Shown in pieces: positions 33,868 to 58,000 of a stretch of DNA of 64,000 nucleotides. The first letter of the stretch is position 1. Each line of letters opens with the position of its first letter. The position numbers and the translations under genes are program-made. This stretch comes from a virus (lineage: Duplodnaviria > Caudoviricetes): positions 10,322 to 74,321 of IMG/VR virus record IMGVR_UViG_3300033120_001005; one strand, 5' to 3'. The notes beneath the pieces were generated by a model that saw nothing but the letters and a program-made list of their open reading frames with translations, made no database searches and was not told where the DNA came from.

Positions 33868-34365
33868 ATGAAAATTTATTTAGCAAAATCAAATAAAGCA
33901 AACTATGATGTAGTTGCTTTAACAAGAAAACATTTAACAGAATTAGGACACGAAATTGTTGAATTTAAAGGTGGTGATTATTCGCCATTAGACCTTGAAA
34001 ATTCAGATGCTTGTGTTGCTATTGTTGATCAATACTCAGCAACTGAACCTATTATTGGTAGAGGTTTATTTGAACAAATGAATATTTGTTTATTTAAAAC
34101 AGCAAAAACTTGTGTTGTTGTTAATGCAGACCAAATTAATGAGTTTATAGTTCATCGTGTATTGGACACTAAACTTATTGACAGTAAAAATTGGGTTGCT
34201 TATGGAAGGGCTGTTTTGGAGCCTAAATCAGTTCCATTTAGTATGATAATTGATAACGGAAAATCAATTTCAAGTTCACAAGGTTTTCAATCAAAACCTT
34301 CACAAGATTTATCAGAACAACCAACCAGTAAATTACCAGAATACGATCCTAAAAAATTATTTTAA
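33868..34365 (+). CDS. nucleoside 2-deoxyribosyltransferase-like Rossmann protein
   Basis: KIYLA..., GHEIV, LENSD.CV.., IGRGLFEQ. Confidence 0.45.
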   Translation: MKIYLAKSNKANYDVVALTRKHLTELGHEIVEFKGGDYSPLDLENSDACVAIVDQYSATEPIIGRGLFEQMNICLFKTAKTCVVVNADQINEFIVHRVLDTKLIDSKNWVAYGRAVLEPKSVPFSMIIDNGKSISSSQGFQSKPSQDLSEQPTSKLPEYDPKKLF

Positions 34366-34367
34366 GC

Positions 34368-35735
34368 ATGAAAGTTTTAAAAGTAAAAATTGAAAATTAT
34401 AAACTTCTTGAAGAAGTTGAATTAGATTTATCAGGAAGATCAATTATAGTTACCGGCCCTAACGAGGTCGGTAAATCTTCTTTGATTGATTCTATTTTTG
34501 ATGTGTTATCAAATGGAGATATGCCGCCTAAACCAATTAGAGACGGTGAAGAAAATGGCTTAATTCAAATTGAAGTTGGTGATGAAGAAAGTGGAACTAA
34601 ATACATTGTTCAAAAAAGTTTTACCAAGGCAAATGAAAAAGGTTATTTGAGTATTTCAACTCCCGATGGTGCAAAGTATTCAAAACCTGTAGAGCATTTA
34701 CATAAATTGTTTGGCACTATTAGTTTTGACATTGAAAAACTACTTAATGCCAAAAACGAAAAAGAAATGTTCAAAATGTTAAAAGACTTTTTGAATATTG
34801 ATACTGTTGATTTGGATGCTGAATACAAAAAAGTATTCGAAGAAAGAGCATTTTTAAATAAAGAAGTTTCTACTTTACAGCAATTTATTAAGGAATTTGC
34901 TCCTGGTTATATTGATAGCAAAAAAGAAGAATTAGCTAAACTAAAATTAAAAGCTCAAGAATTGGAGCCTAAAAAATTAGAATTGGCTAAAGTTCAAGCT
35001 AGTATTATTAAAGGTAATGATTTTATTAATAATAATGCTCAAGTAATTCAAAACATTAATGTTGCAATTTCTTCTAACAATTCAACTGTTCAACGTAATC
35101 AAGAATTAATCGCTGATTATGAAAAAAAAATCATTGAGTTAAAAGAAGCTAACAATAAAATCTGTGAAGAAAACTTAGTACACGCAGAAAACCTTAAAAA
35201 AGAAACAAAAATTAAGGAAGATGCTACTTTATTGTTAAAAAAATACAATGAAGAAAAAGATCAATTAGTTGCCGATACTAATACTGAATCTGACGCTTCT
35301 TTAATGGTTGCCATTGAAAAGGATATTCAAGAGTATAATACTAGTATTGAAACTACAAAAACAGCTGAAACAAAATCAATTGAAGCAAAAGCCAAAACTA
35401 AAAGACTTGACGAAATCAAAGCTAGTATTTCAGAATTGTTTAAAGCTGCTTCTACCGATGAAATTACTATCACTGAAGATGAAATTTTGTATAAAGGACT
35501 TCCTTTAAACAAAAAACAAATTAACACTGCTAGCCTTGCTAAATTAGCCCTTCAGTTGGCCATGAAATCAAATTCTAAACTACAAAGTGTTAGGTTTGAT
35601 GCATCATTTATGGACAACAAAACTTTCCATGAAACAATGAACGAAATCCGAAAAGCAGGCTTTCAAGCATTTGTTGAAATGGTTGACAAAGAAGGTCAAG
35701 ACTTACAAATTATTGTTGAAGAAGATATTTTGTAG
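34368..35735 (+). CDS. Rad50/SbcC-like ATPase
   Basis: LKVKIENYK, Walker A GPNEVGKSS, long coiled coil, degenerate C-terminal motifs. Confidence 0.75.
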   Translation: MKVLKVKIENYKLLEEVELDLSGRSIIVTGPNEVGKSSLIDSIFDVLSNGDMPPKPIRDGEENGLIQIEVGDEESGTKYIVQKSFTKANEKGYLSISTPDGAKYSKPVEHLHKLFGTISFDIEKLLNAKNEKEMFKMLKDFLNIDTVDLDAEYKKVFEERAFLNKEVSTLQQFIKEFAPGYIDSKKEELAKLKLKAQELEPKKLELAKVQASIIKGNDFINNNAQVIQNINVAISSNNSTVQRNQELIADYEKKIIELKEANNKICEENLVHAENLKKETKIKEDATLLLKKYNEEKDQLVADTNTESDASLMVAIEKDIQEYNTSIETTKTAETKSIEAKAKTKRLDEIKASISELFKAASTDEITITEDEILYKGLPLNKKQINTASLAKLALQLAMKSNSKLQSVRFDASFMDNKTFHETMNEIRKAGFQAFVEMVDKEGQDLQIIVEEDIL

Positions 35736-35747
35736 TAATTTAGCACC

Positions 35748-36104
35748 ATGAGAATAAAAGATGCTATTGAAAAAGATGTAGTTACTAAAGGTGACATAGC
35801 TAACTTACGAACTGTTTATAATTCTAAACTAGATAGTATCTTTTATTTAATTGATGATATTGAAAATATGGAAAAGGAGTTACACAACAAATATTTCCAT
35901 CTTAAAAAGCTTCAAACAGAAAACAAACTTTTAGACTTATATATTGAAGAATTAACCAATTATGGCAGTAATAAAGATAACAAGCAAAAAAGAAAAAAAG
36001 ATAACATTACGCTACAGTACCTTAAAAGACTATCCGGCCTGTGCCAAGCGATACCATCTAAGCACGTTACACCAGCCGAAGTTCAAACAAAAAACAGAAA
36101 ATGA
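35748..36104 (+). CDS. hypothetical protein
   Basis: 118 aa; 3' part overlaps the nuclease gene. Confidence 0.45.
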   Translation: MRIKDAIEKDVVTKGDIANLRTVYNSKLDSIFYLIDDIENMEKELHNKYFHLKKLQTENKLLDLYIEELTNYGSNKDNKQKRKKDNITLQYLKRLSGLCQAIPSKHVTPAEVQTKNRK

Positions 36105-36810
36105 TATGCTTAAAGGTTCAATATTTGAATATTGGGCTACTGGTGGAACTTCTTCTGAAATTGTCCCTAATATGTGTGACAAATGGATGAAATCTAAAAA
36201 CAACAAAATTGGCAGGTTAAAAAACGAAACCATAGAAAAAATCTATGATGCTGCTATGTCAGCTAAAAAAATCTTTGTTGAAACCATTTATGCCAATGAA
36301 GAATTTAGAATTGATTTAAAGCCAGGCTTTGAACTTGTTTTTCACCCTGACGTAATAGGTACAATTACGTTGCCAGATTACCCAAATCCATTTGTTGCTA
36401 TTGTTGATACAAAATACACAGCATCAATTAATGAAGTTTGGAATGTAAAAGATAAGCAAAAAGACTTTTTGCAAGCACTTGTTTATGTTTATGGTTTTTA
36501 TCATTGGACGTTAAAAGTTCAAGGTAAAGGGGTTCATTTACCTTTTGTGTATCATATTACTGAACACAACGATTTCAACAAACCATTACACAAAACAATT
36601 GTGTTAAAAGTATCAGAAACAAACTTCCTACAGTTTGAAAAATTACTTGAATCTATTATGAACGATACTGAATTTAAACCTACAGCGCATGATTTTAACT
36701 GTATTGGTAAAGGTAATTCATTTGGAGCATGTAGATTTATTGATTTTTGCGAAGAAGGAAGAAAATTAATAAACAAAACAGAAGAATATAATTTTTCAGA
36801 TTTAACCTAA
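35962..36810 (+). CDS. PD-(D/E)XK exonuclease (Cas4/RecB-like)
   Basis: LRYSTLKDYPAC...GSIFE, HPDV, IVDTKYT, Q..VY, C-terminal C...C..C. Confidence 0.75.
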   Translation: MAVIKITSKKEKKITLRYSTLKDYPACAKRYHLSTLHQPKFKQKTENDMLKGSIFEYWATGGTSSEIVPNMCDKWMKSKNNKIGRLKNETIEKIYDAAMSAKKIFVETIYANEEFRIDLKPGFELVFHPDVIGTITLPDYPNPFVAIVDTKYTASINEVWNVKDKQKDFLQALVYVYGFYHWTLKVQGKGVHLPFVYHITEHNDFNKPLHKTIVLKVSETNFLQFEKLLESIMNDTEFKPTAHDFNCIGKGNSFGACRFIDFCEEGRKLINKTEEYNFSDLT

Positions 36811-38372
36811 TGGTAGAAGTAAAAAAAACCAGAACAACAAAAAAAGACCAGTTAAATGAACGTCTTTTAGAAGTTATTCATCAAGGTAAAATTCCACCTC
36901 AAACTATAGAAATGGAAAAAATTGTTCTTGGAATGATATTGTTACAAGAAGATTCAATTTATAAAGTTTCTCCTTTGCTTACAAGTGAAATGTTTTACAA
37001 ACCAGAACATCAGAATATATATAAAGCAATTTCTAATCTTTATCGTTTAAAAAACCCAATTGATATAATTACTGTTTCTCATGAGTTAAAAAAATTAGGT
37101 CTTTTAGAAGAAACTGGTGGTGCATATTATGTAACAAGTTTAACTACTAATTTAGCAACAAGTAGAAATACTGAATATTATGCTCTTGTTATTCGAGAAA
37201 AATGGATTTGTAGGGAAGTTATATCTAAACTTTTTGTAAATGCAAATTTGGCATATGAAGATGATACAGATGTTTTTGATTTAATTGCTAGTACTAAAAC
37301 GTTTCTTACGCATTTAGAACAAGACATAAACACAACATCATCATCTATTAAAGAATACTCAGCCAATGTTCTTAAAGTTGTTGAAGAAAACAAAAAGCCA
37401 ACAATAGGCCATGGTACAGGTTTAATATTGTTAGATTATAGAACTGGTGGTTTTCAAAACACAGATTTAATTGTAATTGCTGGTAGGCCCGGAAGAGGTA
37501 AAACAATTTTATTGATTCATGGTGTAAGAGAGTGTTACATTAAAAAAGTTCCTAGTGCTATTTATACCTATGAAATGTCAGGCGAACAATTAGTTCATAG
37601 ATTAATATCAAGTCACCTTAAAATTGATAACAATGCATTACGAGCCAACAAACTATCAGAAGAAGAAAAAGGATTAATTAAAATATTTCATGAGGATATA
37701 TATGACAAAATTTTGATTAACGACAAAAACCCTAATTTATATGAATTATTAAATTCCATGGAAAGGGACGTTATAGAAAAAGGTGTTCAGATTTTCTTTA
37801 TTGATTATTTACAATTAATTCCTACTCCAAAGGATTTAGAAAGAAAAACCAGAAATGATTACATTGGAATAGTATCATTTGCTTTAAAAACATTTGCAAA
37901 AAAACATAATGTTCCAATAGTAGCTTTAGCTCAGTTATCACGAGAAAGTGAAAAAAGAACTAAAGATGATGGTTTTACTGATTATATTATGTCAGATTTA
38001 CGAGAATCAGGTTCGCTTGAACAAGATGCAGATATGGTTTTGTTTGTTGATTATAGTGAAAAAACTGGTAAATCACGCGTTCAGTTTGGCAAATTTAGAC
38101 ATGGCGCCCTTGCAAAAGTTTCTTTAAAATTTGAAGGTAAATACGTAAGGTTTCTAAATGATGAAGACGATTCTACTACCCGTAAAGCTATGGCACATTA
38201 TGAGCAATTTGGAGAAATCAGTGTAACTTTTGAAGAAGATTTAAAAGCAACAACAGCAGCAAAACCAACAGAAACAACAACACTTACAATAGAAAGTGTT
38301 CCTTATTTTTATCGTGACCCTACAGAAGCAGGTCAAGATGATGTATTACCTGATACTGAATCACCATTTTAA
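36810..38372 (+). CDS. dnaB: replicative DNA helicase
   Basis: N-terminal PPQ..E.E..VLG domain, AGRPGRGKT, IDYLQLI, AQLSRESE, LRESGSLEQDAD. Confidence 0.95.
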   Translation: MVEVKKTRTTKKDQLNERLLEVIHQGKIPPQTIEMEKIVLGMILLQEDSIYKVSPLLTSEMFYKPEHQNIYKAISNLYRLKNPIDIITVSHELKKLGLLEETGGAYYVTSLTTNLATSRNTEYYALVIREKWICREVISKLFVNANLAYEDDTDVFDLIASTKTFLTHLEQDINTTSSSIKEYSANVLKVVEENKKPTIGHGTGLILLDYRTGGFQNTDLIVIAGRPGRGKTILLIHGVRECYIKKVPSAIYTYEMSGEQLVHRLISSHLKIDNNALRANKLSEEEKGLIKIFHEDIYDKILINDKNPNLYELLNSMERDVIEKGVQIFFIDYLQLIPTPKDLERKTRNDYIGIVSFALKTFAKKHNVPIVALAQLSRESEKRTKDDGFTDYIMSDLRESGSLEQDADMVLFVDYSEKTGKSRVQFGKFRHGALAKVSLKFEGKYVRFLNDEDDSTTRKAMAHYEQFGEISVTFEEDLKATTAAKPTETTTLTIESVPYFYRDPTEAGQDDVLPDTESPF

Positions 38373-38680
38373 TGAAACTAGAACTTAAAAAAATTCAAGA
38401 TCACCCGTTTTTTAAAAATCCGGGTGAAAAATATTGGTATTTATTAGGCGAGAAAATTTGTTACAATCGTTTAAAAACCATAAAATTGTATAATAAACAT
38501 TATGAACCTGAGAGTACTGAGGACAACGTTGAAAAAATAAAAACATTCTTTGCGTATGTCATGTATAATAAAGACAAACCATTGAAGCTTTTTGATTCAA
38601 AAGAAAATCTACTTGACGATTTAAATAAATATAATCATGTTAACAAACGGGACACACAAGAAAACAGTAGCTCAAATTGA
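38372..38680 (+). CDS. hypothetical protein
   Basis: 102 aa after dnaB. Confidence 0.5.
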   Translation: MKLELKKIQDHPFFKNPGEKYWYLLGEKICYNRLKTIKLYNKHYEPESTEDNVEKIKTFFAYVMYNKDKPLKLFDSKENLLDDLNKYNHVNKRDTQENSSSN

Positions 38681-39101
38681 GCACTCAAAAAGCAAGTACA
38701 AAGGAAGAGACGGTGACATTTATGTACATAAAGTTACTTTTACCGATGGAACTTATGGTGAAAACCATACTAAATCAGAACAATGTAAAGATTTTGTTGC
38801 TAATCAAGAAGTTGAATTTATCTGCGAAGTCAAAGTAAATGGCAATTACACCAATTACAAAATTAAAGTTGAAAAAGACAAAAAAGGTAATTTTGGTGGT
38901 GGTAGTAGTGGCAGAACATTTACACCTAGTAATGATGGTAAATACATGGCAGCTGCAAAATGTATTGAGTTATCAATTTTAGCCGTTGAAAAAGGAGTAA
39001 TTAAAGACAATCAAATTAGTGAAACAACAACAAAGTTTTATAAACTTATTTCCGGGCTTGTTGAAGGACAAACCCCTACTACAACAGAACAAACCCAATA
39101 A
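38637..39101 (+). CDS. putative OB-fold ssDNA-binding/recombination protein
   Basis: Beta-rich N-domain, G-rich linker, helical C-domain; in the replication cluster. Confidence 0.4.
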   Translation: MLTNGTHKKTVAQIEHSKSKYKGRDGDIYVHKVTFTDGTYGENHTKSEQCKDFVANQEVEFICEVKVNGNYTNYKIKVEKDKKGNFGGGSSGRTFTPSNDGKYMAAAKCIELSILAVEKGVIKDNQISETTTKFYKLISGLVEGQTPTTTEQTQ

Positions 39102-39295
39102 GGTAAGTATCATCTTTCCTTATCCAATTATTATTTTCAATTACTTTGAAGAAATATTGTTGCTTAAAAAATGTAAAACCCTTCTTAATGAAGGGGTTTA
39201 TTTTTTTGGCTATAATTTAGAAGAATTGGATTACAGTGTATTTGCTGAGTTTCAAAATTATCCTAGAATTGTATATAAAATAGAAATAGAAAGTA

Positions 39296-39751
39296 ATGAA
39301 ATGGACTCAAAAATCATTAAATAATTTAGGATTTGAATTAAATGATGGTATAGCAAAAAAAACAAATAAAAAATCAGTACAAAAAAAACCTTCACAAAAA
39401 AAAATTAATAAAGTTATTGGCAATCTTCAGGAAAAAGCAAAAGACAAATTACAGCTTGATCCAAAAGATTTTATTGAATTAGCCCTTAAAAACTCAAAAT
39501 GGTATTGGGTAAAAGAATATCAATTTGATACTGAACGTAAGTTTAGGTTTGATTGGGCTATTCCTGAACTTAAATTCTATTTTGAATACGATGGTTTAGT
39601 ATCAGAAAAAAGTGGCCATACTACTTTAGTAGGCTATACAAAAGACACAGAAAAAAGATCGCTGGCAACCGATTTAGGTTGGAATGGAAAACATTACACT
39701 ATTCTTAACTACAAAAACATTATTGCCGACCTTAACAAACTAAATAAATAA
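39296..39751 (+). CDS. Vsr/DUF559-like endonuclease
   Basis: EYQFDTERKFRFDWA...EYDG...H.T..GY..D..K....GW. Confidence 0.7.
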   Translation: MKWTQKSLNNLGFELNDGIAKKTNKKSVQKKPSQKKINKVIGNLQEKAKDKLQLDPKDFIELALKNSKWYWVKEYQFDTERKFRFDWAIPELKFYFEYDGLVSEKSGHTTLVGYTKDTEKRSLATDLGWNGKHYTILNYKNIIADLNKLNK

Positions 39752-39753
39752 TT

Positions 39754-40266
39754 ATGCAAAACTTCATTTTAGCACTTAAAGACGTATTAGATGTTTCAGA
39801 TTTAAAATTAGTTATTGCCTTAGATGGCAATAACGTAACAATTCAAATTTCTCCAAAAGCAAAAGAAGGAAATACTGATTTTCCATCATTAAACTTTGCT
39901 GGCCATATCAATACTATTGATGATAAATTTGGTGAACAATTAGCATCTAAGCTTAAAAAGAACCTTCCACTAATTAGCAATATTAATGTTTACGATAAAA
40001 ACCTTGCTAAATTAGAAGAAAGTAAAAAAATTGAAGTTACTAAAAAAGCAACTGAAAAAAAGCCGGAAACTAAAAAACCAACAGTTGCCAAAAAAGAAAC
40101 ATCAGGTTTAGAACTAAAACCTGAAGAATTAGGTAAAGAAAATGATGATGATGATGAAAATAACAGTCATGCTGAACAACAAAATACAGTTGCTAATTTA
40201 ACAGAAGAAAAACCTGAACCAAAAACAGAAGAAACAACAGCACCAGCACAAGAAAAATTATTTTAA
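39754..40266 (+). CDS. PRTRC system protein E
   Basis: LKLVIALDGNNVTIQISP...SLNFAG...IDDKF N-domain plus charged tail; operon position. Confidence 0.7.
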   Translation: MQNFILALKDVLDVSDLKLVIALDGNNVTIQISPKAKEGNTDFPSLNFAGHINTIDDKFGEQLASKLKKNLPLISNINVYDKNLAKLEESKKIEVTKKATEKKPETKKPTVAKKETSGLELKPEELGKENDDDDENNSHAEQQNTVANLTEEKPEPKTEETTAPAQEKLF

Positions 40267-40274
40267 TTAGCAAT

Positions 40275-40478
40275 ATGGAATTTACATTAATAAGAAGAAT
40301 ATTTGAATTTGAAGGTCAAGAATATAGTGACCCAAACCCTAATATGAGTATTGATAGAGCTAAAGCATTTTTAGCAAATGAAAAACCTGCTATTATAAAT
40401 GCCACTGTTCTTTCTGATACTACACAAGGTAACAAAAGGATAATTAAATTAGGTAAAAATGCCGGAACGCATGGATAA
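40275..40478 (+). CDS. PRTRC system protein C (ubiquitin-like)
   Basis: RIFEF.G..YSDPNPNMS...AFLA...PAI.NATV...GTHG with C-terminal Gly. Confidence 0.85.
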   Translation: MEFTLIRRIFEFEGQEYSDPNPNMSIDRAKAFLANEKPAIINATVLSDTTQGNKRIIKLGKNAGTHG

Positions 40479-40674
40479 CCAAACAAAAATTATTTCCGTA
40501 CTTCAATTAAGTTTGAAGTACGGAAATAAAACTGAGAAAGAAATAAAATCAGAACAAGAAAATCAGAACAACGAAGAGTATAAAGAACAGTATAAAGAAA
40601 TTAAATTTATAGTTCTACCATGGAATATGACTGGAAAACCATTAGAAGCAAAATTCAAAAATCCGGTATATTAA
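40459..40674 (+). CDS. small hypothetical protein in the PRTRC operon
   Basis: Fills the gap between C and F-like; start 40459 or the next Met (MDNQ). Confidence 0.4.
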   Translation: MPERMDNQTKIISVLQLSLKYGNKTEKEIKSEQENQNNEEYKEQYKEIKFIVLPWNMTGKPLEAKFKNPVY

Positions 40675-41573
40675 CTGAAGTAAAAGTTGTACCTCAATTA
40701 TATGACAATCATACAGGACTTAGTGAACTGGCTTGTTATATGATTTGGATATCTGAATATAAAAATTATACTTTTAAAGGTAATTCACTTAAAGAATATG
40801 TTCAAGAAGTAACACAACAATTACAAGAAGATGATGAAAACCTTGATTATTTCTTTCAAAATAATCAACTTACTGTAATTCACGAATACATTGAAAGCCC
40901 TAAACAGTATATCAATTTATTGGCACTTTACAAATTCTTTGATTACAATCTTGATGCTACAAGTTATTTTTGTTATTATTTAGAAACTAAAGGTATTGGT
41001 TTTATTCATGAGGTTAATGATATGTTTCCATTTGAATCATTTTGTGAAATGGAAATGTCAGAAGAAAACTCGATACTTAATGATTATTTTTCTGAAAATT
41101 TTCCTCAAATAGCTAAAATTAAATTTGAAAAATATAACGATGGAACTGCTTTTGCTACTGGTTGGGATTTTGTTTGTACAAAAAAACCAAAAAATTTAAC
41201 TGCTCCTCAAAAAGATTTAATTAAACGTTGGGAAAAATTATTTAAAAACTTTCATTTAGGAGATTGTATAATTAATCCAAATGCTTTTGAAGAAGACTGT
41301 TTAATACCAACTGCATATTTACGAGTTGGTATTGGCAATGAACCAGATTTTTATCAACATAACTACAATTATGATGTTTCAGATTTTGTTATTGAATCTA
41401 TAATTACACTTAATACGGATAATTTATCAAAAGAATTTAATTCCTATAATTATGACGGGCATGACGGGCTATATTTTAGAGTTATTTTAGATAAAAAAAA
41501 ACAAGAAAAAATAAAACAATCTATTTTTGAATTTAATAACCTATATAACGAATTATGCAATTTGACGGTTTAG
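40620..41573 (+). CDS. PRTRC protein F-like (positional)
   Basis: 317 aa between C and B as in Bacteroidota PRTRC loci; sequence divergent. Confidence 0.4.
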   Translation: MEYDWKTIRSKIQKSGILTEVKVVPQLYDNHTGLSELACYMIWISEYKNYTFKGNSLKEYVQEVTQQLQEDDENLDYFFQNNQLTVIHEYIESPKQYINLLALYKFFDYNLDATSYFCYYLETKGIGFIHEVNDMFPFESFCEMEMSEENSILNDYFSENFPQIAKIKFEKYNDGTAFATGWDFVCTKKPKNLTAPQKDLIKRWEKLFKNFHLGDCIINPNAFEEDCLIPTAYLRVGIGNEPDFYQHNYNYDVSDFVIESIITLNTDNLSKEFNSYNYDGHDGLYFRVILDKKKQEKIKQSIFEFNNLYNELCNLTV

Positions 41574-42139
41574 TTACTCCAAAACACGTTTTGGTTTATT
41601 ACGATGATAAATACAGCGAATACGCTAACGTAGAAAACGGTGAGATAGGTGCATTTAAACCTATAACAAAAGATTTTTTACAAAAAATATCAATTCAAAC
41701 AAAAATTGGTGAAACATTATGCGGTGTAACTCCTAAAAATTTAGTTGGTTACATTCCTATTATCAATAGTTATAGAATTGTATTTACAACACCAGAACAA
41801 ACAAAAACCATTTATCATACATCAGGAGAATTAAAAATTAATTTTCCAAAGATGATTTGGTTTTACGATAAGAATAAAGATCATTTAGAAATATTTAAAT
41901 ACGATACATTGGCTAAAAATGCCATAATGATTCCTATTAATTTTTCAAATGTTAATAGTGGAACTGTTTGTATTGGTACGTGTCCAAGGCCAAAAAGTCA
42001 AACATTTAAAGAAGTAATCAAAGAAACTCAAGAAATGTTTTTTGATGGAAAATTTAACCATGATCAGATAAAAATTACTTATTCAAAATCAAAAGAAAAT
42101 TTATGGAAAACAGTTTTGAAATTCACAAATACTTATTAA
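41555..42139 (+). CDS. PRTRC system protein B (prokaryotic E2 family D)
   Basis: V.NGEIGAFKP, VF.TP, FPKMIW, F.NVNSGTVCIG, FFDGKFNH. Confidence 0.8.
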   Translation: MQFDGLVTPKHVLVYYDDKYSEYANVENGEIGAFKPITKDFLQKISIQTKIGETLCGVTPKNLVGYIPIINSYRIVFTTPEQTKTIYHTSGELKINFPKMIWFYDKNKDHLEIFKYDTLAKNAIMIPINFSNVNSGTVCIGTCPRPKSQTFKEVIKETQEMFFDGKFNHDQIKITYSKSKENLWKTVLKFTNTY

Positions 42140-42831
42140 ATCCCGGACACCCAATTACTATTAATGTAGTTGGAGCTGGCGGCACTGGTGGTTATGTTGT
42201 AGGCGATTTAGCAGCATTGCATTTGTATTTAATTAACACTGGCCGTCCTGGATTAATGGTTACAGTTTATGACCCTGACAATGTAACTGAATCAAATGTT
42301 GGAAGACAAAATTTTAATTTTTCTGATATAGGAGAAAACAAAGCTATTTGTTTAGTCGAAAAATACAACCGATACTATTCTTTAAATTGGGAAGCAAAAG
42401 CTAAATATTATGACCTAAATTTTGCAAATATTACCATTGTATGTTCTGACACAGTAAAATCAAGATGCGAAATTGCTACTCATTTTAAAGAATCACCAAA
42501 ATTTTACAATCGTTTATATAGTGATAGTATCAGACCTTATTTATTAATTGATTGTGGCAATGGTTACGATTTTGGTCAAGTCATTGTTACTAGATTTAAA
42601 ACTGAAGATAAAACTTTTATTGATCATTTTCCTAATTTACCTGAGCCAAAAGAAACACACAGTTGTTCAATGGCAGAAAGTTTATTGAAACAAAATTTGT
42701 TTATCAATAAATTCATTGCAAATTTGGCTATAAATTGGCTTTACACAGGAATTAGGGAAACACAGCAAACTAATTTAGGTTATTTTTTTAATTTTAACGG
42801 AATTATACCATTACAATATGAAAAAGTTTAA
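42103..42831 (+). CDS. PRTRC ThiF-family E1-like enzyme
   Basis: VVGAGGTGG, DPDNVTESNVGRQ, DIGENKA, IDCGNG.DFGQV, HSCSMAESL.KQNLFIN. Confidence 0.9.
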   Translation: MENSFEIHKYLLNPGHPITINVVGAGGTGGYVVGDLAALHLYLINTGRPGLMVTVYDPDNVTESNVGRQNFNFSDIGENKAICLVEKYNRYYSLNWEAKAKYYDLNFANITIVCSDTVKSRCEIATHFKESPKFYNRLYSDSIRPYLLIDCGNGYDFGQVIVTRFKTEDKTFIDHFPNLPEPKETHSCSMAESLLKQNLFINKFIANLAINWLYTGIRETQQTNLGYFFNFNGIIPLQYEKV

Positions 42832-43039
42832 ATATGCTGGTATGAATATGCTTCCATTTACAATGGAAAATGATGTTAATGTTATGTATTTTGGTGTTCA
42901 AACAATGAAACAATGGGATCATTTTTGGTGGAATGAATGGAATAAATTAAATACGGAACTTAAGACTAAAAAACCCAACACAACTTGCATGGTTTCTAAA
43001 CGAGGTCCTAACAGAATAAAACCTAAAAAAAGAAAATAA
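42818..43039 (+). CDS. small hypothetical protein
   Basis: 73 aa, tiled. Confidence 0.5.
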   Translation: MKKFKYAGMNMLPFTMENDVNVMYFGVQTMKQWDHFWWNEWNKLNTELKTKKPNTTCMVSKRGPNRIKPKKRK

Positions 43040-43611
43040 TGTTTCTTACAACTGAAGAATTAAAGCTTTTTTACGATGCTTCTAACAAAGGAATATCGTT
43101 TGATGAAGCATTGCTATTGTTAGCACCTGAAGAATCAAAAAAATCATTTTTGCAGGTCCAGGAATATGCTGTTTTTTACATGGAAAAAAGAAACGATGAA
43201 GCAATTCTTATTAACATGAATAATAATGCCGAATTGTTAAATAAAATTTTTTCATTAATGAACCATATTAAACAAACTTACGCTTCAACTTTAGAAGCTA
43301 TTGAAAGCTGTAATGGAAATGTTTTATTTGCTGACATAAAAAATGATGCTGTAACAGGATATTTTGATAACAATTACCCTAATCCATTTAATGAGGAATT
43401 TAATGTAAAAAAAGATTATCGAATTAACTATTCAATGAATGTTTATCATGGCATTAAAGTAGCTGTTGATGCAGACAATGAAACTGCATATTTTATGGCA
43501 GAAATTGAAGGACAAATTTTACAAACTAAACAATTTAATATTTCAAAACTTTATGAACAATCAAGAGAACTTAAGGCCTATCGTGCCAAAGGAGACACGA
43601 CTTCAAATTAA
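43039..43611 (+). CDS. hypothetical protein
   Basis: 190 aa; no JAB HxH motif. Confidence 0.55.
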   Translation: MFLTTEELKLFYDASNKGISFDEALLLLAPEESKKSFLQVQEYAVFYMEKRNDEAILINMNNNAELLNKIFSLMNHIKQTYASTLEAIESCNGNVLFADIKNDAVTGYFDNNYPNPFNEEFNVKKDYRINYSMNVYHGIKVAVDADNETAYFMAEIEGQILQTKQFNISKLYEQSRELKAYRAKGDTTSN

Positions 43612-45682
43612 AAAATTTGGTGACGAATTAGCTATCAGAACAACCTCACAATTATCAGAAAACAATTATTATAGAATTGCTTTTTGCCAATGGTTTTTTT
43701 CATTAGATGATAATGAATACAACGAAAAAAAACGCTGGTATTTAAGAGCACAAGACAACACTTTGTACACTGGTATTTTAATGGATAGAGCCGTTAAAGA
43801 AGTTCTTACAGGCAAAATTAGCAGTTATTTAAACAATTGGGAAAAGCACGTTAGGAGAATTAATGTTCCAGTGTACATTAATAACAGAATAGTTTATAAA
43901 GATTGGGACAAAGAATTTGAAACAGAAGTTTTAAACCCTATTGAAGACCCTTTTAAAAGTGTACCCGCTGCTGGTTTTGACCTTGAGCATTTAAAATATT
44001 TAGCTGATGAAATGGCTATTATTAAAAAAGATATTGAAGAATTTAGATCAAAACGTGTTTGGAATCAAATATTTTTCTATAACAATAAATTTTTTCTTTG
44101 TTTTCCATATTCTGCTAATATGGTAGTTAATGTAAAAAGCTCATTTACAAGTTACAAATGGCGCTCAGAAGAAAAATGGTGGGAAATAGATTCTTCAGAA
44201 AAAAAAGCTATTCGAGATTTTGCTTTAATGCATAAATTTTCATTTCATAAAAATGCTACTGAATTTCTTTTTGGTAATGCTGAAAAAATCAATGCTTCTC
44301 AAATGGTTGTATCTGATTTTAAAGTTAATGGTTTTAAAATAGAACCATATCCTTATCAAAATGCTGGAATACAATTTGGCAATAAAGCTAAAAAAATACT
44401 TATTGCTGATGAAATGGGACTTGGTAAATCAATTCAATCAATTGGAATTGTGATGTCACATTTGTCTTTTCCTTGTTTAGTAGTGGCACCAAAATCGTTA
44501 CTATACAATTGGGAAAATGAATGGAAAAAATTTACTAGCCATAAACCATATGTATTTTATAATTCAAAATATCCTTTAGATACCGTTTTGTCTATTGCCA
44601 ATGTTGTTATTATTAACTATGAAGGAGTAAAAAAACTTTTACCTTTTAAAGATAGATTTAAGTCAATTATTGTAGATGAAAGTCATAATGTAAAAAACGA
44701 CAAAACAAAACGTTTTACTGAGGTTTTAGAAATGGCTACTGGCAAAGATGTTAGATGTTTACTTACAGGTACTCCTATAATGAATGCACCAGCTGAATTA
44801 ATACCTCAATTAAAAATTCTTGATATGCTAAAAGATATAAATACTGAAAAAAAATTTAGGGATAGGTATTGTGGCAAACATGGTGGAGATAACCTTGACG
44901 AATTAAATATCAAATTACGCAGTTCTGTAATGATTAGGCGCGAAAAAAAAGACGTGCTTACTGATTTACCTGATTTGGTAAGAAATTATGTTAAAGTTGA
45001 CATTACCACGCGCGAAGAATACAATAGAGCCGAAAATGACTTTGTAAATTATCTCAAAGAAGTTAAAGAAATGAGTGACCGAAAAATTAAAGCTGCTATG
45101 AACGCTGAAATTTTGGTTAAAATGGGTATTCTTAAACAAATATCAGCACGAGGTAAAATTGAAGCTATTCTTGAATATTGTAAAAGTGCTTTTGATGAAA
45201 ATCAAAAAATTATTCTTTTTGGATATCACCGCGAAGTGCTGCATGAATACACCAAACGTTTAAATTCCAATTTACTTATTACTGGAGCCACAAAAATTGA
45301 AGATAGACAAAAATATGTTGATATGTTTCAAAACGACCCTAAACAAATGTCAATCTGTTTATCAATTAGGGCTGCATCTGTTGGTTTAACTTTAACCGCT
45401 TCTAGTAATGAAGTGTTTGCAGAATTTGATTGGACATCAGCAATGCATGACCAAGCTGAAGCAAGAGCTCATCGTATTGGCCAAAAGAACTCAGTTAGTG
45501 CTAATTACTTTGTTGGTATTGATACTATTGATTCTGACATTGTAGAATTAATCAATTTCAAAAGAAACATGATTAATGAAATGACCGGAACAAAACACAA
45601 TGTTTCTGAAAACAGCACAATTATTAAGGATTTGCTTAAAAAACGTTATAATTTTGAACCTGAAGGAGAAATTCAAGCATGA
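43553..45682 (+). CDS. SNF2-family helicase with HARP-like domain
   Basis: ADEMGLGKS, IVDESH, LLTGTP, ASVGLTLT, QAEARAHRIGQ; start likely ATG 43553. Confidence 0.9.
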   Translation: MNNQENLRPIVPKETRLQIKKFGDELAIRTTSQLSENNYYRIAFCQWFFSLDDNEYNEKKRWYLRAQDNTLYTGILMDRAVKEVLTGKISSYLNNWEKHVRRINVPVYINNRIVYKDWDKEFETEVLNPIEDPFKSVPAAGFDLEHLKYLADEMAIIKKDIEEFRSKRVWNQIFFYNNKFFLCFPYSANMVVNVKSSFTSYKWRSEEKWWEIDSSEKKAIRDFALMHKFSFHKNATEFLFGNAEKINASQMVVSDFKVNGFKIEPYPYQNAGIQFGNKAKKILIADEMGLGKSIQSIGIVMSHLSFPCLVVAPKSLLYNWENEWKKFTSHKPYVFYNSKYPLDTVLSIANVVIINYEGVKKLLPFKDRFKSIIVDESHNVKNDKTKRFTEVLEMATGKDVRCLLTGTPIMNAPAELIPQLKILDMLKDINTEKKFRDRYCGKHGGDNLDELNIKLRSSVMIRREKKDVLTDLPDLVRNYVKVDITTREEYNRAENDFVNYLKEVKEMSDRKIKAAMNAEILVKMGILKQISARGKIEAILEYCKSAFDENQKIILFGYHREVLHEYTKRLNSNLLITGATKIEDRQKYVDMFQNDPKQMSICLSIRAASVGLTLTASSNEVFAEFDWTSAMHDQAEARAHRIGQKNSVSANYFVGIDTIDSDIVELINFKRNMINEMTGTKHNVSENSTIIKDLLKKRYNFEPEGEIQA

Positions 45683-46041
45683 TAAAAAAAGAATGGTTAT
45701 TAAAAAAATGGAAAGCTATTTGGGCTAAAAAACAAGAAAAAGAAATAGTCAAACCACCAAACACTCAACTAGCAGTGTTTTTAAAATGTCATTTGGCATT
45801 TATTCCAAATACTGTTACAGAAGAAGAATGGGATTTAACTCCTAACAATTCTAAAACGGAAAAAATGGATTTGTTTAAAGGGCGTGTATTAATTGCAGGA
45901 AAACATGATATTATTAAATATTATGAGTGTGAGCCCGGAATAGTAATGATTTGTTCTGTTAATGGATTTACACGAGTATCTGAACCAATAAGCAAAATTG
46001 ATAAAATACTTATTGATTTTGACAAAGCTGTATTAGTATAA
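45679..46041 (+). CDS. hypothetical protein
   Basis: 120 aa, tiled. Confidence 0.5.
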   Translation: MIKKEWLLKKWKAIWAKKQEKEIVKPPNTQLAVFLKCHLAFIPNTVTEEEWDLTPNNSKTEKMDLFKGRVLIAGKHDIIKYYECEPGIVMICSVNGFTRVSEPISKIDKILIDFDKAVLV

Positions 46042-46099
46042 CAGTATAATTATAAGAACAACTATCAGAACAATTTTAAAACTATCAAATTCTATTCTA

Positions 46100-46447
46100 A
46101 TGAATAATCAAAAAACATGGACGCCAAGGGTTGCAAGTGAAACCTTTGGCACTGCCATTGTAAAAACAGAAGAAGCTTTTTTATTTGTTAAAGCAGCTAT
46201 GGAAAATGGTTCAGACATTGAAACAGCTAATAGAGATATGCACATGATTGATGATTTACTTCACATGGAAAGAATGCATTTTTCTTTATTAGGTTTTACT
46301 GCCAAAACTAAAAGCGGCCACTACCGTAAAAACCATACAATTTCAAAAATGCTTGAAACAGTTATTGATGGATATGCAAAAGAAGAAAACCTCTTAAATC
46401 AACAAAAAAATGACTATAGTAGATTTATTGTGCCAAAAAGTACTTGA
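46100..46447 (+). CDS. hypothetical protein
   Basis: 115 aa after ATCAGAA motif. Confidence 0.55.
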   Translation: MNNQKTWTPRVASETFGTAIVKTEEAFLFVKAAMENGSDIETANRDMHMIDDLLHMERMHFSLLGFTAKTKSGHYRKNHTISKMLETVIDGYAKEENLLNQQKNDYSRFIVPKST

Positions 46448-46655
46448 GTTTTTACAAAAATCTCATGAAAAAAAACCAGAAATTATGATTATACACCCTG
46501 AAACATGGGTTGATATTACAAGAGAGTATGCTTTACATAGGGCTAGCGCAGAAACAATTGAAAGTTTAATGAAAATGGAAATTAGGATATATAATACTAA
46601 GCTTCAAGCGTACCGCAGTTACGATGTAAAAGAAAAAGAAATAATTGTAATGTAA
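46410..46655 (+). CDS. hypothetical protein
   Basis: KPEIMIIHPETW motif. Confidence 0.5.
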   Translation: MTIVDLLCQKVLEFLQKSHEKKPEIMIIHPETWVDITREYALHRASAETIESLMKMEIRIYNTKLQAYRSYDVKEKEIIVM

Positions 46656-46656
46656 T

Positions 46657-47535
46657 ATGAAAAAAATAAAATCAGAGTTTACAAAAGACTGGATTATTGA
46701 TAATTCAATTAACATTTGTTCTGAATATGAACATGGTGTTTTGACTTTAAGAGGACTTCACTATCAATTAGTTTCTATTGGAATGACAAATGATTTAGCA
46801 CACTACAAAAAAGTAGTTAATGCAATGATTGAGGCCCGATGGAATGAACAAATAGATTTTGAACAATTTTCAGACCTTGACAGAGGTATGATTGGCGAAA
46901 CAGCTTATCAAACAACTCATCTTTATGAAGAAATTCAATTAGGAAAACTACAAGTAACAGCTTGGATGAATAATTATAGCAAAAATAAATGGGAAAATCA
47001 ACCTAATTATGTTGAAGTATTTATTGAAAAAAAAGCTTTACAAGGTGTTTTTCAGTCTACTTGTAACGATTGGGATGTTGCCCTTGGTGCGTGCAAAGGT
47101 TATCCTTCACTTACATTTTTACATGAATCCGTTCAACGTTATAAAAAAGTTATTGAAACTGGTAAAAAAGTTACAATTCTTTATTTTGGTGACTATGATG
47201 CAAGTGGTGAAGATATTCCACGTTCTATTCAAGAAAACTTTATTAAATTTGGTGTTGATGTAAACATTAAAGTTATTGCTTTAAATGAACAACAAGTTAT
47301 TGAATGGAATTTGCCACCAGCCCCAACAAAAGAAACAGATTCAAGAGCTGCAAATTGGAACGGTTTAGGTCAAGTTGAGTTAGATGCAGTTAAGCCACAA
47401 CAAATTATTAAACTTTGTAATAATGCAATTCAAGATATGTTTGATGATGAATTGCATGAAGAATTACTTTTACTTCAAAAAGAAGAAAAAGAAACATACA
47501 AAGCTGAACTTAAAACCTATGTAAACAATTTGTAG
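46657..47535 (+). CDS. Spo11/TopoVI-A/JetD-like wHTH-TOPRIM protein
   Basis: LTLRGLHYQL, VEVFIEKKAL, KGYPS, ILYFGDYDASG.DI, ELDA. Confidence 0.7.
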   Translation: MKKIKSEFTKDWIIDNSINICSEYEHGVLTLRGLHYQLVSIGMTNDLAHYKKVVNAMIEARWNEQIDFEQFSDLDRGMIGETAYQTTHLYEEIQLGKLQVTAWMNNYSKNKWENQPNYVEVFIEKKALQGVFQSTCNDWDVALGACKGYPSLTFLHESVQRYKKVIETGKKVTILYFGDYDASGEDIPRSIQENFIKFGVDVNIKVIALNEQQVIEWNLPPAPTKETDSRAANWNGLGQVELDAVKPQQIIKLCNNAIQDMFDDELHEELLLLQKEEKETYKAELKTYVNNL

Positions 47536-47584
47536 TACAATTATCAGAATAACACATCAGAATAAACAAATAAACACAAAAATT

Positions 47585-48178
47585 ATGCAAGAACAAATTA
47601 AAGAGTTAAGAGTTAAAATTGATGGATTAAGTCAATTAGTAAAAGAATTAAAACCAAATAGAAAAACTATTGTAGGATATGCCCATGAATACCCACATAA
47701 AATAGCAGATCATGTAATGTTTGAGAAGATTAACTCAAAAGAAATAGAGAAAGTTTTTGATTCTCTTATTTATGCAAAAGCATGGTTGGGTAAATTATTA
47801 GGAGAATTAGGGGAACAAACACCTTATGCAAATGATGGAAAAAGAAACAATGTTGACGATATTGAACCAGCTGCTGATACACATCATCAAATTAATCAAA
47901 CTCATGTTTTAGGTAAAGAAAAAGGATTAATCCCAGAAGAATATTTACTTTCATTTAACCACATTCAAAAAGTAGATTGGTTAAGACAAGAAATTGAAAA
48001 AATAGTAATTGAAGTAAAACAAATAGGAAATGCACCTAATCCTCCAATGTTAAATAGAGAAATTAGTATAGCAAGAACAAATGCTTACAATCATTTAACA
48101 GAAGCACGTTTTGCTTTGGGCTTTGAATTATATCGTATTAAACAATTAGATATTGCCGAAACAACTAAACCATTTTAG
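47585..48178 (+). CDS. phage hypothetical protein
   Basis: AKAWLGKLLGELG..TPY.NDG.R..V.DIEP.AD pattern. Confidence 0.6.
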   Translation: MQEQIKELRVKIDGLSQLVKELKPNRKTIVGYAHEYPHKIADHVMFEKINSKEIEKVFDSLIYAKAWLGKLLGELGEQTPYANDGKRNNVDDIEPAADTHHQINQTHVLGKEKGLIPEEYLLSFNHIQKVDWLRQEIEKIVIEVKQIGNAPNPPMLNREISIARTNAYNHLTEARFALGFELYRIKQLDIAETTKPF

Positions 48179-48254
48179 ATCCAATAAGTGATGTTGGAAT
48201 TTAAAAATTAAATCAGAACAATTATCAGAACAAAAAATCATACAAATTAAAAAT

Positions 48255-49040
48255 ATGAAATATTTAACAGGAGATGATACCACTAAATTAAAAGGCTGGA
48301 TTTCATTTTACCCAACATTTAGTAACGGCCTTTATTTAGAAAAAGCAGCATACTTTGATGAACGTCCTACAATTGTAGGAACTATAACTTCTATTTTAAG
48401 TTTAATAGGACTATTAATACTGCCATTTTATTCATTATGGTGGTTATTTTTAGTTGTTTTTTTATTTGTTGGTTGGGGACGTGTATTTATTCATTTGCCA
48501 ATTAAAACGGGAATTCAAGATTGCGACAGTGCTGCATGGGGTTTTAATTACCATGGTAATAAAATATGGCTTTATATTGGTGGTAGTGGTAATTATGAAG
48601 GCGGCAGAAAATGGAAAACATTTACTATGCCTTGGGATCCAACATGGATAAGAAGATCAACTTTAATTAAAGGTAATCCTAATTATTGGCATCATGAAAC
48701 AAAAAAAAATCCAAAAGAATGGAATGGTGTTAATGTAGGAAGTTACGAATGGTTAAAAATTTATAAATATAAAGAAACGCATCCTTATATTGATTCTTAT
48801 GACGGCACAACTGTTAATGCAACACTATCAATGGTTGAAACGGAATGGCGCCCTTTATGGTTTCAATGGACCTCATTATTTGCTAAAAAAAGTACTTTTA
48901 TTGATATAGAATTTGATCAAGAAGTTGGAAAACAAAAAGGTGAATGGAAAGGTGGTTGCATTGGTTGTAATTATGAAATAAAAACTGGCGAAACAATGTT
49001 GCAATGTTTAAAACGAATGGAAAAAGAACGTAAGTTTTAG
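48255..49040 (+). CDS. membrane-anchored hypothetical protein
   Basis: Two TM helices near the N-terminus; KGEWKGGCIGC C-terminal motif. Confidence 0.6.
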   Translation: MKYLTGDDTTKLKGWISFYPTFSNGLYLEKAAYFDERPTIVGTITSILSLIGLLILPFYSLWWLFLVVFLFVGWGRVFIHLPIKTGIQDCDSAAWGFNYHGNKIWLYIGGSGNYEGGRKWKTFTMPWDPTWIRRSTLIKGNPNYWHHETKKNPKEWNGVNVGSYEWLKIYKYKETHPYIDSYDGTTVNATLSMVETEWRPLWFQWTSLFAKKSTFIDIEFDQEVGKQKGEWKGGCIGCNYEIKTGETMLQCLKRMEKERKF

Positions 49041-55008: not shown

Positions 55009-58000
55009 TTAATTAGAAACTTTATCTATAAAATGTTTAAATCCATGTTTTTGTTCCCATTTTTTCTTTTCATTTATTTTGTAATCACTTAATAAATAAT
55101 CAGGATTTATAGATTCTATCAAGTTTCCAATTGGTGTTGCTTTATCTAAAATTTTAGCAAATTGTGAATTGTATTTTGATTTTTCACTTACAGGAATAAA
55201 CATATCTTGAATACGAGGCCCTAATGATGATATTACTAAACCAGCTAAAATTGCTATTGGATTTGCTCCAATTAATGCTTGAGTTAAAATTGAGAACATT
55301 AACAAATAATCAAATTTTCCATATTCAATTGCTTTTTTATGGTTTTTAATTAATTCTTTGATACCATTTTCATCTTCTTCATCATCCCAATAAGCCATAC
55401 TTAAATATGCCAATGTGCTCATAATAGTAAACATATTCATAGCTAAAGCTTTTTGAATTTTAGCAATGTCTTCTCTAGTGTATGAATCAATTGCTATTTG
55501 ATTTTGATCATTTAATTTAAAAACATCTTTTCCAGTTTTGTTATGTAAAAAATTTAAAGCTAAAAGCACCGATGAACTATAAACTGGTCTATTTGTGTAT
55601 TCACCTGATTTTGCAGCGACATTACCCCATTTTCTATTAAATGCTGGAACAACCCATGTTTTAAATTTAAGCATTTGTGACGATAGCGTGTCTTGATGCC
55701 TAATACTTGTAGATTTACTCACACCTCCAGCCAATGATAAATATTTTGCCATGGCAGAATTAATTGCTTGCATTTGATTATCCGTTAATGACTCACCATT
55801 TTTTATTTTATCAAAAATAGAAGTAAAAGCACTTTCAGATATTTCACCTCCAACAATTGACATCATTTTTATGTAATCATTAAATTTATACATTACATAC
55901 ATGCTGTTTAACATTTTGTCAGTTAATCCGGGTTTTAAATTTTCATATACACCTTCTGGAAGTACATTGTCAATTGCTAAAATCTTTTTAACTTTATCAA
56001 TATTTTTAAGTCCATCAAAAAAAGCAAATATGTTTTTGTTTTGTGTTTCAGTGTTTTTGGTCAACAATTTTACACCAGTTTTTATCCCTTGGTATGATTT
56101 TTTAAGTTCACCATTATCTATTGTTAATGACAATGTATCTGCTACTAAATCCACTATTTGAGCCGAAAAATTAAATCCTAATGCAAGTGAAGTCATGTAA
56201 TCATTTAAAACTTTTATTGCTTTGCGGCCCAATAAATCTTGTTTGCTTTTTTTAGCGTTTGATTTATTGAAATATTTACTGTCAATAAATTCACCAATAA
56301 TAGCTTTTGCTGAACTTTGATCTGCATCTTTTTCAATTGTATTGCCAATAATGTAATTAAATGCATCTGCATAAGAATTTACGTGTTGGCCAATACGAAT
56401 TGCATGAACTTCATCAAGAAAAGTGCTAAAATTATAGTTTAAATCATTGCTTACATCAGCTTCTTTTTGGTAAATATCTTTACCTACAATCATTGAACGT
56501 AAATTGATTTTTCTTTTGAAACGTTTAAATCCTTTAATATTTCCGGCATTATTTGGATTTTTCGCTATTTCATTAATTTGGTTCATGTATTGCAAAGCTT
56601 GAGCATTTGGAAAATGACTAATAATATCAACCCAATCATTAACTGATTTTACTTTACGTTTTTTATCGTTAGGATCTTCAAAAGCAATTAATTTATTTCC
56701 ATAGGCTTTTAATTGATAAGCAATGACTAATTGATTCCAATTTTTCCTTTTTTCACCTTTAAATGTATGTAACCATGAATTTAACAATGAATTGTATTTC
56801 ATTCCCGAAGCGGGTACAGGAATTTGTTGTAATTCATATTCTTCTGTTTCTTCATTTTTTTTGTAAAATTGATATAAATAAGAATCACCTAACAATGGAT
56901 TACCACCTATTTTTTTAGTCATAAAAATATCATTCATTATTTGTTCCATTTTACTTGAAACAAAATTGTAATATTTCATTTCTGCCATGGTAAAATTTTC
57001 ATTTTGTACTTCATCTATTGTTTTAAATACGCGCGTTCCATTAGGTCCTGATTTAGAAAATCTATTCATTAAATCAAGTTCTGTATTTTTATTTAAACGA
57101 ATTTTATTTTTAAGTCCGGCTAAAAACCCTTTATTAATTAAATTTCTTTCTTCTAAAACAGCATTCCATAAATTTTTAGCACTTAATTTAGTCATTGCAG
57201 CATCAGTAAGCATATTATCAGATTTTTGATTCATTTGATAAAACATCTTACCTATTTGTTGTTTGTGCATTGACCAACTAGCAGGTGTTAAAAACAATTG
57301 AGCAATTTTATCAAACCCTAAAGTAGTCATATCAACTAATTCATCTGGAGTATCTTTTGCGTTTGTTATATCTTGAACTGCTTTTGACAATGAAATATTT
57401 TCTGACAACATCATATATTCTTGCAAAACATAATTTAAAGTTTCATCAGAAACCAAATTTTGTTCATGTAAAAATCTTGTGTATGCTTCAAATTTTGCTA
57501 AATCTGACGAATTGTAACTTCTATACGCGCCATTGTAAATACCAGTAATTACATCTTTGTAAATTTTTACAAATTGTTTTACTTGTGTTTTATGGATATT
57601 CATTTTAGAAATAACTTTTTCTTTTCTATTAAATAACTCAGTAACTGCATCTAATAAATTTGGATTATCAATACTAGGATCTTCCATATTAATTACATTA
57701 CCTACAGATGATAAATTAACATCAGGAGCAAAACCAATAGCGCTTGATGATTCTATTCTTTTTACAGAACTGTTCATTGCACTGTTATAAGAATTAATTA
57801 CATCATTAATATAAGGACGAATTAAAGAATAGTCAACAGGTATCGTTTTTATTCCACCTGATTGATCAACTGACATAATCCTTAATGTTTTTACAACCTC
57901 ACCTTGACTTTCTTTTATATGCGCTAAAATTCCACCTTTTAAAACTGCTTTTGCAGGTGGTTGTTTTGGCAATCCCGCAATAGCTTCAGTAATCATTTCT

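Follow-up and report, generated by a model that had tools for sequence, protein, structure and literature searches.

PRTRC stands for ParB-Related, ThiF-Related Cassette, and its components are covered by the NCBIfam models TIGR03734–03742. Functions have been assigned only recently to bacterial systems that combine an E1, an E2 and a ubiquitin-like protein (Ubl), and both of those concerned, CBASS Cap2 and Bil, are host defences. The subject of this analysis is a PRTRC-type E1/E2/Ubl cassette located at positions 39754–42831 of a 64,000-nt stretch of viral DNA (the window), which comprises positions 10,322–74,321 of the 74,321-base IMG/VR virus record IMGVR_UViG_3300033120_001005. Operons of E1, E2, JAB and Ubl genes on mobile elements were predicted, with speculation on addiction or protection roles, by Iyer, Burroughs and Aravind (2006; PMC1779556). 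In the literature PRTRC is named in 45 papers, almost always as annotation. For a prophage of Burkholderia gladioli, a 2026 paper (PMC13366799) reports the full cassette (ParB; A, B, F, C and E; ThiF), to which it applies the term partitioning cassette without testing such a role. According to a 2026 preprint, PRTRC protein B of a Phocaeicola vulgatus prophage is a hotspot of mutation.

The window cassette is a new, divergent member of the known PRTRC kind and not a first. It resembles the described systems in having a ThiF-type E1 above the PRTRC_ThiF cut-off, a recognisable Ubl, probable E2 and E proteins and a mobile genome as its carrier, and the function of both is equally a matter of prediction from sequence. 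Unlike them, it comes from a record without ParB, protein A (Prok-JAB), F or D; its E, C and B proteins fall under the curated cut-offs, and a non-homologous protein X of 317 amino acids (aa) and a small open reading frame (ORF) fill the slot between the Ubl and E2 genes. A PRTRC ThiF gene is likewise phage-borne in the full cassettes of B. gladioli prophage AB2/BgVeeders33 and Ralstonia phage Dina, but these phages are temperate and their hosts are Proteobacteria. With Bil (BilABCD) and CBASS Cap2 the same chemistry would be expected, and the Rossmann region of the window E1 is weakly similar to that of Cap2. Those systems, however, are host-encoded defences with a JAB deconjugase (in Bil itself; Cap3 in CBASS), and Cap2 is an E1–E2 fusion that acts on a CD-NTase, whereas no CD-NTase accompanies the window cassette.

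Layout and enzymes of the cassette

Six overlapping or near-abutting ORFs occupy the + strand in the order E, Ubl, small ORF, X, E2, E1. The features of the cassette are as follows:

39754–40266, + strand: PRTRC_E-like protein, 170 aa
40275–40478, + strand: Ubl (Prok_Ub/PRTRC_C), 67 aa
40471–40674, + strand: conserved small ORF, 67 aa, with its ATG at 40471 (a longer automated ORF call starts at 40459)
40490–40529: perfect 17-bp inverted repeat with a 6-nt loop, inside the small ORF and 12 nt past the Ubl stop codon
40620–41573, + strand: orphan protein X, 317 aa, in the slot between Ubl and E2
41555–42139, + strand: E2-like protein (Prok-E2_D/PRTRC_B), 194 aa
42103–42831, + strand: ThiF-type E1 (PRTRC_ThiF), 242 aa

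A gap of 8 nt separates E from Ubl, and the Ubl stop codon overlaps the start of the small ORF within ATGGATAA. The remaining genes overlap by 55 nt (small ORF/X), 19 nt (X/E2), 37 nt (E2/E1) and 14 nt (E1/next ORF). An initial annotation of this DNA had described overlapping genes for PRTRC-E, a 67-aa Ubl ending in GTHG, an E2-family-D protein with NV..G.VC.G and a ThiF/E1 with GAGGTG and SCS motifs; all are found in place, and the family matches of the E1, E2, Ubl and E proteins bear out its view of a PRTRC-type cassette in a phage. The locus is very probably an intact PRTRC-type E1/E2/Ubl cassette.

The E1 provides the strongest family match (TIGR03736, E 2.3e-48, 164.7 bits against a cut-off of 144.75), which was confirmed by a six-frame search of the record. 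Its GAGGTGG and SCS motifs are present. Across an alignment of 18 sequences, G24xGGTG29, D57, R68/Q69, K80, D116 and C188-S189 are invariant or nearly so, and the window E1 keeps all the invariant positions, including D59, N65, R121 and a DxGNGxDxGQ block. When the E1 profile was compared with solved structures, the best matches were UBA6, Cap2 and the NEDD8 E1 (E 1e-6 to 1e-4), and these covered the nucleotide-binding half only. The same region alone matches Cap2-type models in PADLOC v2.0.0 (E ~1e-6), in which the E2 and Ubl have no match; Bil models may be missing from this release of 2023. The window E1 is 93% identical to its relative P0001.

The E2-like protein matches PF14460 (E 1.7e-11, 44.6 bits; cut-off 25) and, well below its cut-off, the PRTRC_B model TIGR03737 (E 5e-8, 32.5 bits; cut-off 131.45). 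It carries the sequence NVNSGTVCIG, and the invariant P98, N132, C139 and G141 of an 18-sequence alignment are kept together with an F..(S/G).F.H motif. Cys139 is the probable catalytic residue, as judged from this conservation. The C-terminus of the window E2 is about 40 aa shorter than those of its relatives, and a sequence-based comparison of the E2 profile with solved structures gave no match.

The Ubl is recognised by PF14454 (E 7e-12, 45.4 bits; gathering score 25) and scores 38.2 bits against PRTRC_C TIGR03738 (cut-off 45.95), with positions 3–66 of 66 covered in a model that ends at the terminal Gly. Its C-terminus reads GTHG, and the GGA codon of Gly67 is followed directly by a TAA stop. 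The protein is made with Gly67 already exposed and therefore needs no trimming protease, as had been proposed. The Gly before the stop, in a G-T-(K/H)-G context, is kept in most of 66 loci, with GTKG-stop the commonest form. The exposed Gly is thus a trait of the whole family and no special adaptation of the window phage.

For protein E, the family assignment by score is marginal (TIGR03741, E 2.5e-5, 24.2 bits, cut-off 37.95; PF19556, 25.5 bits, gathering score 26). With phmmer, it matches the same-position proteins of other loci (best E 8e-8), with which it shares its N-terminal domain. In an AlphaFold2 (AF2) model this domain of ~100 aa consists of a helix, three strands and a long helix (pLDDT 72–97 over residues 1–100), and it is followed by a Lys/Glu/Pro-rich tail in which pLDDT falls below 55. 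A comparison of the fold with the PDB gave no significant match. A resemblance to the head domain and coiled coil of SAS-6 and XLF was weak and non-significant (E >= 0.05) and was not used.

From these families a pathway can be proposed, in which the cassette would act as a PRTRC core lacking JAB and ParB, co-transcribed with phage replication genes. The ThiF-type E1 would bind ATP and adenylate Gly67 of the Ubl; the Ubl would then be passed, possibly via Cys188 of the E1, to Cys139 of the E2, and finally be attached to a lysine of the target. Because the record encodes no deconjugase, a mark once attached would not be reversed while the infection goes on. One candidate substrate is the Lys-rich tail of E. 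Conjugation along the route E1, E2, target is the reading that the conserved motifs make rather probable.

A different use of the same parts would be sulfur transfer, in which the Ubl is thiocarboxylated like ThiS or MoaD for cofactor or nucleic-acid modification and no protein is conjugated. The E1 is of a minimal ThiF/MoeB type with weak matches to ThiF equivalogs (E 1e-5 to 1e-2), and the Gly end of the Ubl is as in ThiS and MoaD. However, these matches reach 15–25 bits against cut-offs of 152–437, so that the E1 lies far under the ThiF/MoeB cut-offs and above that of PRTRC_ThiF; the cassette always includes an E2-like protein that carries an invariant Cys, and the operon contains no sulfur-transfer or biosynthetic partner, since NCBIfam and Pfam scans showed no gene for a rhodanese, a cysteine desulfurase or a thiazole or molybdopterin synthase. 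A sulfur-carrier role is very unlikely.

The slot between the Ubl and E2 genes

The small ORF at 40471–40674 and the hairpin at 40490–40529 were overlooked in the initial annotation. Three relatives of the small ORF, each of 63 aa and 70–88% identity, were found in other assemblies; they differ from the window copy by an in-frame indel of four codons and contain no stops. Since the frame has stayed open across this indel, the ORF is probably a real gene. Small ORFs also occur at the equivalent position in five other loci (L053, L056, L065, L067 and L070).

The region around the inverted repeat is predicted to fold strongly as RNA (40470–40625, -36.1 kcal/mol, z -8.7), and none of 200 shuffled sequences folded as well. 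The peptide encoded by the hairpin does not vary among four relatives. Other strong stem-loops, in some cases with a run of T behind them, are found 3′ of the Ubl gene in L018, L022, L028, L041, L057, L065 and L072. The repeat is a probable RNA stem-loop with a role in processing, stability or attenuation. It may keep E and Ubl, as the stoichiometric parts of the pathway, more abundant than the enzymes encoded downstream.

Neither the small ORF nor protein X has a match in NCBIfam, Pfam, PHROGs or PADLOC. When 1.8 billion representatives were searched exhaustively, only two relatives of X came up, at 90% and 31% identity. Comparison of X by hhalign with the 23 proteins that occupy the same position in other loci gave nothing, and no Pfam domain was found in any of these 24 slot proteins, X included. 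Neither an AF2 model of X (pLDDT 41.8) nor an ESM Atlas model (pLDDT 0.39) is usable. Judged by these comparisons, X and the small ORF appear to evolve fast. They would be the best candidates for specificity factors or substrates of the pathway.

Two other identities for the slot were considered and rejected. The first is PRTRC_F, the label originally given to 40620–41573, which has to be withdrawn: TIGR03742 matches nothing here in a protein scan, in a six-frame search of the whole record (E <= 1) or in any of the 24 slot proteins. The second is a single frameshifted gene of about 388 aa made up of the small ORF and X. The 31%-identity relative starts at the same Met as X, the small ORF is a separate 63-aa ORF in three relatives, and hhalign of either piece against the X alignment was null.

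Relatives of the cassette and missing PRTRC components

A search of IMG/VR with the E1 profile returned at least 237 related stretches, of which 80 loci were fetched and 50 parent records examined. The order E (~200 aa), Ubl (67–74 aa), X (~340–430 aa), E2 (~233 aa), E1 is found in 66 of the 80 loci. This five-gene form (e.g., L001, L011, L065, L068 and L097–L110) occurs in IMG/VR phages, proviruses and Bacteroidota genomes, and it shares with the window cassette the gene order, the Gly-stop Ubl, the lack of JAB and, often, a position beside a DnaB-like helicase. The window cassette differs from it in several ways. Its E1 is 30–42% identical to those of the five-gene form and falls in its own clade with P0001–P0011, its X has 317 aa compared with 340–430 aa and no detectable similarity, and its E2 is shorter at the C-terminus. 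A crAss-type head gene (phrog_11589) is present in six of the 50 records, three of which have terminal repeats. The uniqueness that had been implied for this locus is not sustained, given that related E1s are encoded in at least 237 stretches, that six records also have a crAss-type capsid gene and that PRTRC genes of phages are already in the literature.

Compared with 50,697 deposited phage records, the window E1 has matches, at 28–30% identity, only in Burkholderia phage BgVeeders33, in the Ralstonia phages Dina and YO105_4 and in a single faecal contig, and a blastn search of phage records with the cassette gave no match. No ThiF gene was found in two complete Crassvirales genomes (cr56_1 and cr273_1). 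In a search for the DNA of close relatives, a metagenome scan gave only loci at 23–30% identity, and a viral scan made with a single protein gave none. Where bacterial genomes encode related E1s, they belong mostly to the Bacteroidota (Flavobacterium, Chryseobacterium, Sphingobacterium and Lentimicrobiaceae), with a more distant Chloroflexota group. Conjugative-type elements and Bacteroidota chromosomes, too, commonly carry the cassette.

The absence of ParB and of a JAB peptidase had been part of the initial description. When the entire record was searched in all six frames, there was no match (E <= 1) to Prok-JAB, PRTRC_A (TIGR03735/PF14464), PRTRC ParB (TIGR03734), PRTRC_F (TIGR03742) or PRTRC_D (TIGR03739). 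Taken by itself this is weak evidence, because about 41% of the genome is missing, and the claim gains most from the related records. PRTRC_A/JAB is absent from 47 of the 50; among the 28 with a completeness of 90% or more, 27 lack it. In the three records with PRTRC_A matches, these coincide with Prok-JAB matches, and protein A can accordingly be equated with the JAB peptidase. ParB_N is present in 19 of the 50 records, and neither ParB_N nor PRTRC_A occurs in any of the six with a crAss-type head gene. In this branch of the family a core without protease or ParB is therefore the norm and no peculiarity of the window phage. More broadly, a protease-less PRTRC core is common in phages and Bacteroidota mobile elements, often among replication genes; a DnaB-like helicase lies within 8 kb of the cassette in 20 of the 80 loci, and just downstream of E1 in four of the six loci from records with a crAss-type capsid.

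A hidden JAB gene was considered and rejected. Weak Prok-JAB matches in four related phages prove to be RadC-like JAB proteins (HNHPSGN..PS..D) far from the cassette, at 9–40 kb in the three phages for which distances were worked out, and no counterpart was found in the 59%-complete window record. Their positions are as follows:

L085, 1219–1671: RadC-like JAB protein
L086, 887–1453: RadC-like JAB protein
L087, 724–1188: RadC-like JAB protein
L088, 845–1339: RadC-like JAB protein

In the E1 tree, made with FastTree only and unsure in its deep placements, the window E1 and ten metagenomic proteins (46–93% identity) make up a well-supported clade whose members all keep the motifs unchanged. The E1s of other phages with crAss-type capsids fall outside this clade and scatter on long branches. 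Close relatives in other assemblies retain E1 (93% identity), X (90%) and the small ORF (88%).

These data also bear on whether the cassette is a decaying passenger, acquired from a Bacteroidota mobile element and since deprived of its function. The E, Ubl and E2 proteins score under their cut-offs, the E2 is about 40 aa short, and JAB, ParB, F and D are missing, all of which could be expected of such a remnant. The frames, however, are open and coupled and the catalytic motifs intact; the E1 sits in a well-supported clade of 11 sequences with invariant motifs, relatives retain both X and the small ORF, and the reduced gene set is a common form, not a one-off loss. Decay is extremely unlikely.

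The host phage and possible roles of the cassette

The record is classed as linear, with an estimated completeness of 59%. The PHROG families of its major head protein, portal and large terminase are also annotated in crAss-like phages. The head protein shares 23–26% identity over 90% of its length with those of Crassvirales "cr" phages, and its matches also include Flavobacterium and Azobacteroides phages; the large terminase is 23% identical to the terminases of two Crassvirales. The crAss-like label first attached to the phage is fair if it is understood as distant, to judge from these protein similarities, and the host is probably a member of the Bacteroidota.

The cassette lies inside a single block of co-directional + strand genes at ~33.9–49 kb. 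Other features of the window are as follows:

36810–38372: DnaB-like helicase, upstream flank of the cassette
39296–39751, + strand: phrog_503 protein, 151 aa, with a weak homing-endonuclease match, directly upstream of the cassette
42818–43611, + strand: two further coupled ORFs of 73 aa and 190 aa, between E1 and the SNF2 helicase, with overlaps of 14 nt and 1 nt
43466–45682: SNF2-type helicase, downstream flank of the cassette
46657–47535: topoisomerase-family gene, downstream of the SNF2-type helicase
48255–49040, + strand: Acb3-family CBASS inhibitor gene, 261 aa (PF25187, E 3.3e-31, 109 bits, cut-off 27; phrog_7203)
55009–63999, - strand: ORF of at least 2,979 aa that runs past the right end of the window, with no PHROG match at E <= 1e-5

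The replication block as delimited here (33868–49040, + strand) contains DnaB-like, SNF2-type, SbcC-like ATPase and topoisomerase-family genes; no DNA polymerase or primase was found among its scanned genes, which are a subset of the ORFs. Relatives of the phrog_503 protein (44–60% identity) lie 2–3 kb downstream of E1 in L020, L021 and L035, and on this ground its gene looks like a mobile nuclease travelling near such cassettes. The 73-aa and 190-aa ORFs have no family match in NCBIfam, Pfam, PHROGs or PADLOC, and no relatives beside the cassettes of other loci. An Rfam search over the window found no family.

The cassette had been placed among replication genes, and it is indeed flanked by the DnaB-like and SNF2-type helicases, with the topoisomerase gene further downstream. 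This setting, together with the DnaB-like helicases near a quarter of the surveyed loci, would suit a replication or segregation accessory, in which Ubl conjugation regulates a replication or partition protein of the phage or host; annotations of the cassette carry a similar partition reading. In the same direction point the ParB of full PRTRC systems, the ParB_N genes of 19 of the 50 related records and the term partitioning cassette in one paper. On the other hand, neither the window record nor any of the six with a crAss-type capsid has ParB, a partition role is only assumed in the literature, and proximity to replication genes may reflect shared early timing only. Such an accessory role is possible, though a minority prospect.

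The + strand block ends with the Acb3-family gene, and Acb3 has been described in two preprints as an inhibitor of CD-NTases. With this gene the block holds a counter-defence function. In a counter-defence reading of the cassette, the phage Ubl pathway would tag and disable a host immunity protein, or compete with Bil or the Cap2 of type II CBASS. The apparently very fast, arms-race-like evolution of X and the small ORF would agree with such a role, as would the hotspot reported for PRTRC protein B in the Phocaeicola prophage (preprint). Nevertheless, the Acb3-like gene lies 5.4 kb from the cassette and is absent from the other loci, and no link was found between the cassette and any defence system. 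The likeness to Cap2 is weak and confined to the E1 region, the E2 and Ubl have no PADLOC match, and frequent carriers of the cassette also include conjugative-type elements and Bacteroidota chromosomes. Counter-defence as the role of the cassette is unlikely. The neighbourhood slightly favours replication over counter-defence, and the latter stays alive because X and the small protein are fast-evolving and an Acb3-family gene closes the block.

Several points weigh against reading the locus as a working conjugation cassette without JAB or ParB. With the record about 59% complete, a JAB or ParB gene could sit in the missing part; the E, Ubl and E2 proteins score under the NCBIfam curated cut-offs, and no usable model of X was obtained. 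Neither a target nor an E3 or a deconjugase was identified, and a literature search found no experimental or biochemical study of the function of any PRTRC system.

A more specific version of the conjugation reading is that a probably lytic crAss-like phage runs irreversible Ubl conjugation in which the tag is directed to host proteins, such as immunity or replication factors, by X and the small protein. This is tentative and rather doubtful. If true, host tagging aimed by X would be a viral tool for counter-defence or takeover built from E1/E2/Ubl parts. The window copy adds to the PRTRC family a divergent clade and two testable features, a conserved small gene and a stem-loop directly past the Ubl gene. 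The target of the phage-made Ubl would show whether bacterial viruses use Ubl tagging for takeover or counter-defence, as eukaryotic viruses do.

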